64,000 bases of DNA from Escherichia coli. GTDB lineage: Bacteria > Pseudomonadota > Gammaproteobacteria > Enterobacterales > Enterobacteriaceae. Both the position numbers and the translations under genes were made by a program. Positions 12,747 through 23,567 of the stretch are shown here, in pieces. Location: assembly GCF_003334385.1 (NCBI RefSeq), contig NZ_QOWN01000009.1. One strand, 5' to 3'. Within the stretch, counting starts at the first letter, position 1. Every line of letters starts with the position of its first letter. The notes beneath the pieces are model-generated. The model made no database searches. It was not told the origin of the DNA and saw only the letters and a program-made list of their open reading frames with translations.

Positions 12747-12966
12747 ATTGTACCTTTTTGATTAACCATTGGGGTGAGGGAACCCAATACGTACGACACG
12801 TCTGTTACCTTAACATAATAACGTGCTTACCCTTTTTTCGAGCCGCCGCATGATACTGCTTTACGTTGACAATGCAATGGTTAATTTTCACGCAATCGTT
12901 AACCTAGTTTGCTTACGGACTCACAGGGCGTAAACTAGCGCCGTTTTTTTAAGTGATGAGAAGAAA

Positions 12967-13212
12967 ATGACCGATCTCTTTTCCAGCCCTGACCACACAC
13001 TCGACGCGCTTGGCCTGCGCTGCCCGGAACCGGTGATGATGGTGCGCAAAACCGTGCGCAATATGCAGCCTGGCGAAACGTTGCTGATTATCGCCGACGA
13101 TCCGGCCACTACCCGCGATATTCCTGGGTTTTGTACCTTTATGGAACACGAACTGGTTGCTAAAGAGACGGATGGACTGCCTTATCGTTATTTGATTCGT
13201 AAAGGCGGTTGA
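12967..13212 (+). CDS. tusA: Sulfur carrier protein TusA
   Basis: 81 aa [31 protein letters not shown]... with the conserved CPxP motif. Confidence 0.95.
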
Positions 13213-13243
13213 TAGGGGCTGATTGGCTTCGATGCCGCCTTTT

Positions 13244-13306
13244 CCCCTCACCCTAACCCTCTCCCCAGAGGGGCGAGGGGACCGATCGCGCTCAATGTTG
13301 CGATCG
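13244..13306. repeat. GC-rich imperfect palindromic intergenic element plus a second hairpin, between convergent tusA and zntA; probable bidirectional terminator
   Basis: cccctcaccctaaccctctccccagaggggcgaggggac followed by cgatcgc-N10-gcgatcg, read directly. Family assignment (boxC-like) is from memory and uncertain. Confidence 0.5.
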
Positions 13307-13313
13307 GTTTGCC

Positions 13314-15512
13314 TTATCTCCTGCGCAACAATCTTAACGCATTCGCTGTCACCAGCACCGTCGCCCCCGTATCTGCCAGCACTGCCAGCCACAACCCGGT
13401 CATCCCTAACAGCGTGGTGACGAGGAAGATCCCTTTCAGCCCCAGCGCAATAGTGATGTTCTGGCGGATATTGGCGTGAGTGGCGCGTGCCAGTTCAATC
13501 ATTTGCACCAGGCCGCGCAGGTGGTTATGGGTTAATGCTGCGTCGGCGGTTTCCAGCGCCACGTCTGTGCCGCTACCCATTGCAATCCCGATGGCGGCAG
13601 CTTTCATCGCTGGCGCGTCGTTAATACCGTCACCGACCATCGCCAGCGGCGCATGTTGATTCAGCTCGGTCACCGCTTTGACTTTATCTTCCGGCAACAG
13701 GCCCGCTTTAAACTCCAGCCCCAGCTCCCCGGCAATTGCCGCCGCTGCGCGTGGATTATCGCCGGTGAGGATCACCCCTTTGACGCCCAGCGCGTTCAGT
13801 TCACTGATGGCAGTTGCAGCATCGGCGCGCAGGGTATCCTGTAACGCAATGACACCAAGCACGTCATCGTTACGTACTACCAGCACTACCGTTTGCCCGG
13901 CGCTTTCCAGTTCGTTAATTAAACCAGTAAATGCATCAGCGGGATGTTTCCCGGCAGCGCAAATCAATACGCGCTCACCGTTAACCTGCGCTTCAATGCC
14001 AGACCCGACCAGCGCCCGCTGTGATTCGGCGGTGGGAATGGCGAGTTCAGCAACCTGTGCTTCGCGTACGATGGCTTGCGCCAGTGGATGCGTCGCGCCT
14101 TGCTCGACCGCCGCCGCCAGTGTCAGCAGTTCAGATTCACTAATACCCGTTGCCGGATGAATCGCGGTAACGCGCGGTTTACCGACGGTCAGCGTACCGG
14201 TTTTATCAAACGCCACCTGAGTAACACGACCCAGCTGTTCCAGCGCCGCTCCGCCTTTAATCAACGCCCCACGACGCGCTGCCGCCGCCAGCCCGGAGGT
14301 AATCGCCGCAGGCGTTGAGATAACTAACGCACACGGGCAGCCAATCAGCAGCAGCGTCAGCCCTTTATAAATCCACTCCTGCCAGCTGGCGGCAAACAGC
14401 AGCGGTGGCACCAGCGTCACCAGCAGAGCGACGGCCATAATCGCGGGCGTATAGATACGGCTGAAACGGTCGATAAACCGCTCAATGGGAGCGCGACGCT
14501 CTTCGGCTTCTTCGATCAGTTTCAGAATCCGGTCAATGGCGCTGGCTCCCGGTTCTGACAGCACTTCCAACGTCACCAGACGGTCTACGCTGGTGGCACC
14601 AGCAGGGACTTTATCGCCCGTTGCGCGCTCCACCGGAATGGATTCGCCGGTCAGGGCGCTTTCATCAAAACTGGCAAACGGTGAGAGCAGTTTACCGTCG
14701 GCAGGCAAACGCCCACCTGCGGCGACTTCAATCACATCGCCAGGGCGCAGGCTGTTAATCGCCACCTCTTCCCGCTCACCCTTACGCAGGCGCGTGGCGG
14801 TTTCTGGTTTCAGCGCCATTAACGCGCTAACGCCCTGACGCGCGCGGCTGGCGGCCCAGCCTTCCAGTCGTTCACCAATCAAAAACAGCAGCAACACCAT
14901 CGCAGCTTCAGCCGTTGCGCCAATAAACAGTGCACCAATAGCGGCTACGCTCATTAAGGTTTCAATGGCGAAGTAGCTGCCGGATTTGATCAACCGTAAT
15001 GCCTGACGAGCAATCGGGTACAGCCCAACCAGCGTGGTCGCGATAAACGCCAGTTGCCCGAACGGATGATTGAACTGCTCCAGACCCCAGCTGATTGCCA
15101 TCATCACGATTAGCGTAATCAGCGGCAGATTCTCTTTCAGGCGTGATGCTTGCGGTTCTTCGGCGGCCTGTTCATCGCGCAGGGAATAGCCTGCTTTTTG
15201 CAGCGCAGATTCAACTTGTGCACGAATGTCATTGTCGGCATCGACCACCAGTTTTTCGGTGGCGAACAACACCTGCACCTGATTCACGCCTGCAAGCTGG
15301 CGCACGGCATTTTCTACCTTGCGCGCACAGGCGGCGCAGTCCATGCCGCTGACTTTCCAGCTATAGCGGGTGCCGGAGACGTTTTCAGAGAGAGTTGGCG
15401 TGCTGGAACATGCGCCGTCGCAGCAACAGTCGTTGGCGTTCTGTACCGTGGTTAGCGGTTTGAACGCAGCAAATTGAGGGGCTTTCTTGCCGTGATTGTC
15501 AGGAGTCGACAT
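13314..15512 (-). CDS. zntA: Zn/Cd/Pb-exporting P1B-type ATPase ZntA
   Basis: 732 aa ORF with N-terminal metal-binding GMDCAAC, CPC transmembrane motif (IGCPCALVISTP), DKTGTLT phosphorylation site and GDGINDAPA. Confidence 0.96.
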   Translation of the reverse strand: MSTPDNHGKKAPQFAAFKPLTTVQNANDCCCDGACSSTPTLSENVSGTRYSWKVSGMDCAACARKVENAVRQLAGVNQVQVLFATEKLVVDADNDIRAQVESALQKAGYSLRDEQAAEEPQASRLKENLPLITLIVMMAISWGLEQFNHPFGQLAFIATTLVGLYPIARQALRLIKSGSYFAIETLMSVAAIGALFIGATAEAAMVLLLFLIGERLEGWAASRARQGVSALMALKPETATRLRKGEREEVAINSLRPGDVIEVAAGGRLPADGKLLSPFASFDESALTGESIPVERATGDKVPAGATSVDRLVTLEVLSEPGASAIDRILKLIEEAEERRAPIERFIDRFSRIYTPAIMAVALLVTLVPPLLFAASWQEWIYKGLTLLLIGCPCALVISTPAAITSGLAAAARRGALIKGGAALEQLGRVTQVAFDKTGTLTVGKPRVTAIHPATGISESELLTLAAAVEQGATHPLAQAIVREAQVAELAIPTAESQRALVGSGIEAQVNGERVLICAAGKHPADAFTGLINELESAGQTVVLVVRNDDVLGVIALQDTLRADAATAISELNALGVKGVILTGDNPRAAAAIAGELGLEFKAGLLPEDKVKAVTELNQHAPLAMVGDGINDAPAMKAAAIGIAMGSGTDVALETADAALTHNHLRGLVQMIELARATHANIRQNITIALGLKGIFLVTTLLGMTGLWLAVLADTGATVLVTANALRLLRRR

Positions 15513-23460: not shown

Positions 23461-23567
<107 letters not shown>

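Follow-up and report, generated by a model that had tools for sequence, protein, structure and literature searches.

Genomic context of the tusA/zntA spacer

The stretch of DNA analysed here, referred to below as the window, comprises 64,000 nucleotides of an Escherichia coli genome, and the feature of interest lies in the gap between two convergent genes, namely tusA, which encodes the sulfurtransferase TusA, and zntA, which encodes a P-type ATPase for Zn, Cd, and Pb. The DNA at this locus is identical to that of K-12-type E. coli strains. The intervening spacer is 101 bp long (13213-13313), and the initial annotation, made from the letters of the window, had described in it a GC-rich imperfect palindrome followed by a second hairpin. 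Both are present, the former as the string cccctcaccctaaccctctccccagaggggcgaggggac at 13244-13282 and the latter as the inverted repeat cgatcgc-N10-gcgatcg at 13283-13306, and the element has a G+C content of 67% compared with 53% for the window. The features to which we refer are the following, in window coordinates:

12967-13212, plus strand: tusA (sulfurtransferase TusA), from the open reading frame and the RefSeq annotation of identical DNA
13229-13243, minus strand: family flank on the other side of the core, GAAAAGGCGGCATCG on the minus strand and CGATGCCGCCTTTTC on the plus strand, from the alignment of K-12 copies
13244-13279, minus strand: BoxC/PIT/TMECO core, type A mm, 36 nt, an exact consensus match and equivalent to no. 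16 of the published Table 1
13245-13253, plus-strand coordinates: outer block of the core
13254-13256, plus-strand coordinates: loop TAA
13257-13265, plus-strand coordinates: middle block
13266-13270, plus-strand coordinates: loop
13271-13279, plus-strand coordinates: inner block
13257-13279, RNA of either strand: BoxC Watson-Crick hairpin CCCTCTCCCC-AGA-GGGGCGAGGG, 10-bp stem with one mismatch
13280-13299, minus strand: type-A family flank, GACCGATCGCGCTCAATGTT as plus-strand sequence, holding the near arm of hairpin 2 (13282-13289) and its loop
13282-13307, plus strand: hairpin 2, CCGATCGC, a 10-nt loop, and GCGATCGG, with the far arm at 13300-13307
13308-13322, plus strand: U-rich tail TTTGCCTTATCTCCT, a candidate tail of a tusA intrinsic terminator, overlapping the zntA stop codon (13314-13316)
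13314-15512, minus strand: zntA (Zn/Cd/Pb P-type ATPase), from the open reading frame and RefSeq annotation
23468-23501 (plus), 29366-29399 (minus), and 57507-57540 (plus): canonical REP units with 0-3 mismatches to the Y-type consensus

The fold prediction that the initial annotation had proposed as a check gives structures more stable than those of dinucleotide shuffles on both strands of the spacer (plus strand, -47.7 kcal/mol, z = -3.8; minus strand, -47.4 kcal/mol, z = -3.1). The tusA 3' UTR crosses BoxC in the C-rich-first orientation, and the zntA 3' UTR crosses first hairpin 2 and next BoxC, the latter in the published TMECO orientation.

Two further observations concern the surroundings of tusA. 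A mechanical 65-aa open reading frame with a TTG start (13223-13420, plus strand) crosses BoxC as ...PFPLTLTLSPEGRGD... and overlaps the 3' end of zntA in antisense; it is almost certainly spurious, and an example of the way in which repeats seed false gene calls. The divergent yhhQ/tusA spacer holds a terminator-like hairpin, GGCGTAAACTAGCGCC followed by GTTTTTTT (12927-12951, plus strand), which lies on the tusA strand only about 25 nt before the tusA start codon; it could be a leader or an attenuator, or it could mark where a small transcript without annotation ends.

Identity and copy number

The literature on BoxC and PIT elements reportedly runs from Bergler 1992 and the Bachellier reviews to the work of Hoyne and Maher in 2000-2002. 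BoxC (1990s), the PIT elements of Hoyne and Maher, and TMECO have since been recognized as one family, for which a consensus has been given (Holder et al. 2015, PMC4666352). This consensus, CCCTCNCCC-N3-6-GGGNGAGGG-N3-GGGNGAGGG, is matched exactly on the minus strand at 13245-13279, which is the single match in the window against none expected in shuffled sequence, and a loose, hairpin-only pattern finds no further copy in the window. Table 1 of the same study lists 23 copies in MG1655, with no. 16, of type A mm, at 3,608,684-3,608,719; the 36 nt of NC_000913.3 at this position are base-for-base those of window 13244-13279, and they sit between zntA, which ends at 3,608,649, and tusA (3,608,751-3,608,996). 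The resemblance to a boxC-like class that the initial annotation had offered thus understated the case, as the exact consensus match and the catalogued position make the element a full member of the family, and we regard it as practically certain that it is the already known copy no. 16.

Copy number was assessed with a 55-bp BLAST query against 5,426 complete E. coli genomes; every one of them contains the element, the median being 19 places (range 2-35), and one MG1655 record has it at 21 places. An independent survey also lists BoxC among the known stem-loop families of E. coli, with a length of 56 bp and about 32 copies in the older literature. The initial annotation had named a single copy and the lack of a stable predicted structure as grounds for abandoning its reading; the element is multi-copy and has a stable predicted structure. 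For comparisons within K-12 we used the 18 MG1655 sites that hold the 23 copies of Table 1 (Holder et al. 2015); all 18 were retrieved, and a regular expression recovered 23/23 copies at their published coordinates. Two copies, at MG1655 282,101-282,136 and 289,246-289,279, lie inside the cryptic prophage CP4-6, so that the published statement of no association with mobile elements needs qualifying.

Other identities were considered. The initial annotation had set the element apart from the REP units elsewhere in the window, and correctly so, since matches to the REP consensus occur in the window only at 23468, 29366, and 57507, and an identity as REP/BIME is rejected on this ground. The two families do share a number of properties: both are GC-rich, intergenic, dispersed, and often located in 3' UTRs, REP hairpins can fix RNA 3' ends, and a BIME adjoins the tusA/zntA BoxC copy in roughly a tenth of strains. 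Their sequences are, however, unrelated, BoxC numbers about 20 copies whereas REP units number in the hundreds, the three-block architecture is specific to BoxC, and BoxC is without a known RAYT-type transposase. Among Rfam models, the Hrs13 sRNA (RF02631), whose terminator hairpin resembles hairpin 2, gave a full-length hit of 19.7 bits, where the gathering score is 52, and it is rejected as an Erwinia-specific RNA encoded between ansP and EAM2411, the tusA/zntA spacer of Erwiniaceae being only 17-19 bp long; the remaining matches (Antizyme_FSE, mir-3059, Pab91, ylbH, and others) are chance hits far under threshold.

Architecture of the repeat unit

BoxC is a non-coding repeat dispersed through the intergenic DNA of E. 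coli and many other bacteria. Its core consists of three 9-nt blocks, one C-rich and two G-rich, which fold into a GC hairpin and can also adopt an intrastrand purine-motif triplex in vitro (PMC4666352). At the tusA/zntA locus the core reads CCCTCGCCC-CTCTG-GGGAGAGGG-TTA-GGGTGAGGG-G on the minus strand, and the BoxC hairpin is formed by pairing of the first two blocks in the published orientation, with one G-A mismatch. Its predicted free energy is -15.6 to -17.2 kcal/mol on the plus strand and -16.7 kcal/mol on the minus strand, and reaches -25.4 to -26.2 kcal/mol with the third block added. The third block can be laid antiparallel along the purine block; 9/9 third-strand triads are then compatible with a purine-motif triplex, and the one Watson-Crick mismatch corresponds to the mm class.

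The whole repeat unit is longer than the core, extending over some 70 bp from about 13229 to 13299. Alignment of the K-12 copies gives a type-A flank consensus of ...G.GC.CGaACGGTC on one side of the core and GAAcAG.cCGgCac on the other, and the flank at 13280-13299 is identical to type-A K-12 copies at 9-16 of its 20 positions, against 2-8 of 20 for type-B copies. The near arm and the loop of hairpin 2 are thus family sequence, as they lie in the flank shared with type-A copies, and the sole local part is the far arm, GCGATCGG at 13300-13307, which is specific to the locus and to the allele. Hairpin 2, with a predicted free energy of -13.9 kcal/mol on the plus strand and -12.4 kcal/mol on the minus strand, is therefore an allele-specific chimera of BoxC family flank and local sequence. 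In summary of the comparison with the BoxC/PIT/TMECO family, the locus shares the exact consensus, type A mm, the catalogued position, the intergenic site within the tusA/zntA spacer, the flanks, and the dispersal, and its core shows no differences, whereas hairpin 2 with its U-rich tail is local: it arises from pairing of the family flank with 8 nt specific to the locus, and is not a family feature.

Variation among E. coli and related genera

Across the 5,426 genomes the tusA/zntA spacer is dimorphic. The short junction is found in 4,571 genomes, and 1,825 of the 5,426 match the window at 99% or more. The long allele (526/5,426 genomes, about 10%) has a spacer of 260-268 bp with a BIME of three REP units between BoxC and zntA; in this allele (compared as L002:414-681 and L003:414-673) GCTGCTTGAAACCGG stands in place of the hairpin 2 far arm, and hairpin 2 is consequently absent. 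The three short-allele variants examined (O157:H7, ZH063, and WCHEC4533) keep hairpin 2 intact, and all three carry G13272A, a substitution that changes CCCTCGCCC to CCCTCGCTC, departs from the strict consensus, and leaves the BoxC hairpin with two mismatches instead of one. In strain UPEC957C, 8 nt of the outer block are deleted. Judged by this substitution and this deletion, sequence variation suggests that the BoxC copy at tusA/zntA is weakly constrained.

Related genera have filled the same place differently. In Erwiniaceae tusA and zntA are also convergent, and their 17-19 bp spacer contains one palindrome, and in Klebsiella the spacer holds a REP unit. A type-B-like BoxC hairpin with a 2-nt second loop directly follows the tusA stop in one enterobacterial genome (L144:1831-1925), and a degenerate BoxC-like hairpin occupies the same position in Enterobacter cancerogenus (L147:1837-1880); in both cases the downstream gene is not zntA. 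Such hairpins in other enterobacterial genomes point to either ancient presence or repeated insertion at the tusA 3' end. The different repeats found across lineages indicate that the 3' flank of tusA has been colonised repeatedly by intergenic repeats. A clean empty site was sought in the Klebsiella and Erwiniaceae spacers, which were too diverged or occupied, and yielded neither a target-site duplication nor an exact boundary. The unit of about 70 bp makes up most of the E. coli spacer, and, with the spacer of relatives being only 17-19 bp long or filled by a different repeat, this points to secondary colonisation rather than to a dedicated regulatory site.

Wider distribution and mobility

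A scan for the consensus with one genome per species returned at least 120 loci, and Enterobacteria were not among the matches listed. Exact matches in this list come from Polaromonas, Desulfobacterota, Planctomycetota, Nitrospirales, Lysobacterales, and Aestuariivirga, and one Armatimonadota metagenome-assembled genome (JAUSGG01; L032-L116) accounts for dozens of exact cores; across the matches listed, the three blocks are almost invariant and the flanks are lineage-specific. This agrees with the wide bacterial occurrence reported by Holder et al. 2015 (PMC4666352). The JAUSGG01 cores form subfamilies with at least 30 nt of common flank on both sides, for example ...gagcgtaatc, the core, and then tgaaagttctctccatttctgaactcttac, a pattern in the sequence that suggests that these cores are embedded in longer MITE-like repeats.

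Inverted A+B pairs with spacers of 17-45 nt occur in E. coli and Polaromonas; inverted pairs with spacers of 35-51 nt are recurrent in Polaromonas, as such pairs are in E. coli, and direct tandems occur as well. Inverted A+B pairs are a point of resemblance to REPINs and MITEs, next to which single BoxC copies look like half-elements; the differences are that BoxC has neither an identified transposase nor an identified target-site duplication, and that direct tandems exist. Among phage records 3/50,697 contain BoxC, as do 446/72,556 plasmid records, some of which are mislabelled chromosomes. The Campylobacter phages MG065686.1 and MG065691.1 have three BoxC-unit matches each, the best at 96% over 52 nt, which is unexpected for their host and may reflect contamination or misassembly.

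Relic, triplex, and terminator readings

These comparisons bear directly on a reading in which the tusA/zntA copy is a functionless relic, namely the decaying half of a once-mobile REPIN- or MITE-like element whose presence in a non-essential spacer is tolerated. Single copies do resemble halves of the inverted A+B pairs, with a flank that matches the spacer of the pairs, point mutation and deletion have caused decay across strains, other genera carry different repeats in the same spacer, and distant genomes have the same core within longer conserved flanks. Against it stand core blocks that hardly vary between very distant phyla, which pure neutrality does not predict, the lack of a known transposase for the family, and the near-absence of the element from phages together with its rarity on plasmids, so that we consider the relic reading unlikely, albeit a serious contender.

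A second reading places the biology at the level of DNA: once single-stranded in the course of replication or transcription, the three blocks would fold into an H-DNA-like intrastrand triplex that brings polymerases to a halt and turns the locus into a hotspot of rearrangement. Triplex instability has been proposed as the biological significance of the family (Holder et al. 2015, PMC4666352), type A mm oligonucleotides form the triplex in vitro by CD and NMR, and polymerase stops and greater variability at TMECO loci have been reported (PMC4666352). At tusA/zntA the register is intact, with nine compatible triads and one mismatch, and the locus is variable, as seen in the BIME of 526/5,426 genomes, the 8-nt deletion of UPEC957C, and G13272A in 3/3 short-allele variants examined. 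REP/BIME turnover together with neutral decay could nevertheless account for this variability equally well, and triplex potential is not preserved at the variable sites. DMS footprinting in vivo gave no sign of the triplex, and functional tests in vivo were negative as well (PMC4666352). A role of this kind at the tusA/zntA copy therefore appears improbable to us.

The initial annotation had assigned the element a probable role as a bidirectional terminator, in which BoxC and hairpin 2 would together terminate both tusA and zntA intrinsically, and this claim is not supported. Two stable GC-rich hairpins (-12 to -26 kcal/mol, both strands) between convergent genes do invite it, as does the placement of 7 of the 18 K-12 BoxC sites between convergent genes, the coincidence of some BoxC copies with RNA 3' ends, and a terminator-like tail after hairpin 2 in the tusA sense. 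In this sense hairpin 2 is followed by TTTGCCTT, with a tail score of -3.84 against -2.08 for random sequence, and a mapped terminator, that of ppiC, has a free energy of -14.5 kcal/mol, a tail score of -3.31, and a Term-seq end. The spacer thus shares with intrinsic terminators between convergent genes a GC-rich hairpin and, in the tusA sense, a hairpin 2 tail like that of a mapped terminator. It differs from bidirectional ones in that no U-tract follows the BoxC hairpin on either strand, with tail scores of -1.54 on the plus strand and -2.34 or -1.50 on the minus strand, and in that the zntA-sense strand has no U-tract after hairpin 2 either (-2.34), all against the same random value of -2.08. 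On the plus strand, the 8-mers upstream of the zntA-sense hairpins are CGAGGGGA and CACCCTAA, and neither is an A-tract. A scan of the spacer with a consensus terminator pattern likewise found nothing. Because the tail of hairpin 2 is terminator-like only on the tusA-sense strand, the element would at best be unidirectional: hairpin 2 and its tail are at most a putative one-way intrinsic terminator for tusA, and zntA, as read from these tails, is without an intrinsic terminator in the spacer.

Published data point the same way. Earlier reporter work, as cited by Holder et al. 2015 (PMC4666352), found PIT elements to be without promoter or terminator activity. Term-seq, which the initial annotation had named as a test, shows no 3' end in the spacer: Supplementary file 1 of Adams et al. 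2021, covering three growth conditions, has no curated end in 3,608,5xx-3,608,7xx, both genes being perhaps too weakly expressed, and the curated tables have no end labelled tusA or zntA. The supplementary tables of SMRT-Cappable-seq and TERMITe have no tusA or zntA entries. Adams et al. 2021 do report a Rho termination region (Rho score, 2.9) at MG1655 3,607,955 on the minus strand, which corresponds to window position ~14008 on the plus strand, that is, in the tusA sense, inside antisense zntA and about 0.7 kb past the spacer. Its position suggests that some tusA-sense transcription passes the spacer and hairpin 2 and is stopped by Rho within antisense zntA, which, together with the loss of hairpin 2 in the long allele, weighs against a tusA terminator in the spacer. 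Taken as an observation in its own right, the region implies either read-through from the spacer or an antisense transcript that arises within zntA. Adams et al. 2021 list another Rho region at MG1655 3,606,645 on the plus strand, which corresponds to window position ~15318 on the minus strand, about 195 nt into zntA on the sense strand. With no zntA-sense U-tract, negative reporter assays, no Term-seq end, and Rho termination further downstream in the tusA sense, a bidirectional intrinsic terminator is very improbable.

RNA 3' ends at BoxC copies

To our knowledge, no function has been demonstrated for the BoxC family. The K-12 copies do offer a lead at the level of RNA, in that Term-seq ends (Adams et al. 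2021) lie 4-12 nt past the BoxC hairpin at 4 of the 18 loci:

BoxC no. 2: 3' end at 164,636, plus strand, after ...GGGGACCG and before ATCG, in a flank almost identical to that of the window
BoxC no. 7: 3' end at 624,567, minus strand, 12 nt past the core
BoxC no. 17: 3' end at 3,781,065, plus strand, the "primary" lldD end, after ...GGGGACC
BoxC no. 20: 3' end at 3,959,467, minus strand, downstream of the own terminator of ppiC, after ...GGGAGAGGGTCGG

Three of these four loci have the orientation of the tusA mRNA (C-rich-first), and bin-limited look-ups found no Term-seq end after the hairpin at the remaining 14 of 18. About 0.2 coincidences would be expected by chance under a uniform model with 12-nt windows after 23 hairpins and 9.3 million strand positions, a back-of-envelope estimate that uses at most 3,110 curated ends and that enrichment of 3' ends in intergenic DNA would bring up to no more than about 1. 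For the lldD end the intrinsic-terminator score is 1.3, which is below 3, and the end lies within a Rho termination region; it fits trimming rather than intrinsic termination. A very strong Term-seq end at MG1655 624,680 on the minus strand (scores of 103,563 and 243,213 in two conditions) is located 4 nt before BoxC no. 8, in the fepB 5' UTR and the divergent region between fepB and entC, and here the RNA stops upstream of the element and not after it.

The simplest reading of the four loci would be that BoxC hairpins fix 3' ends after termination further downstream. Applied to the locus studied here, BoxC would be transcribed into the 3' UTRs of both tusA and zntA, where its stable hairpin, in the manner of REP elements, would halt 3'-to-5' exonucleases or set the RNA 3' ends in some other way. 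For tusA, termination would most plausibly be helped by hairpin 2 and the U-rich tail, half of hairpin 2 being BoxC flank, and zntA would probably end by Rho-dependent termination followed by trimming back to a hairpin. Predicted 3' ends could then lie near 13283-13284 for tusA and near 13253-13256 for zntA, and no such ends have been observed.

Several points limit this proposal. At the tusA/zntA copy no 3' end was mapped in three growth conditions, the earlier reporter work recorded no terminator activity for such elements, any stable hairpin can yield trimmed 3' ends, so that selection is not required, and the copy is weakly constrained, with G13272A, the 8-nt loss in UPEC957C, and only 1,825/5,426 genomes at 99% identity or more to the window. 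An RNA-level role of this particular copy is accordingly a real possibility that we would stop short of calling likely. The broader proposal, according to which BoxC hairpins are REP-like definers or protectors of RNA 3' ends in vivo, with the inverted A+B pair by extension being a mobile REPIN-like unit and single copies its decayed halves, we put forward as tentative.

Conclusions

Overall, the explanation that we favour, and hold to be reasonably probable, is that the element is BoxC copy no. 16, a secondary colonist of the spacer whose most likely effect is at the RNA level. The best reading of the locus itself is a known selfish or structural repeat in the spacer between convergent genes, whose hairpin may incidentally define RNA 3' ends and whose flank supplies half of a plausible terminator for tusA alone in the common allele, and the annotation of this spacer should read BoxC, not bidirectional terminator. 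The family has been known since the 1990s and was taken up again in 2000-2002 and in 2015, and finding it at this locus matters little in itself; the one mildly new lead is that mapped RNA 3' ends coincide with BoxC hairpins at four other loci. If the RNA-level proposal is true, it would give the BoxC family a role in RNA, one that studies centred on the DNA triplex would have overlooked.
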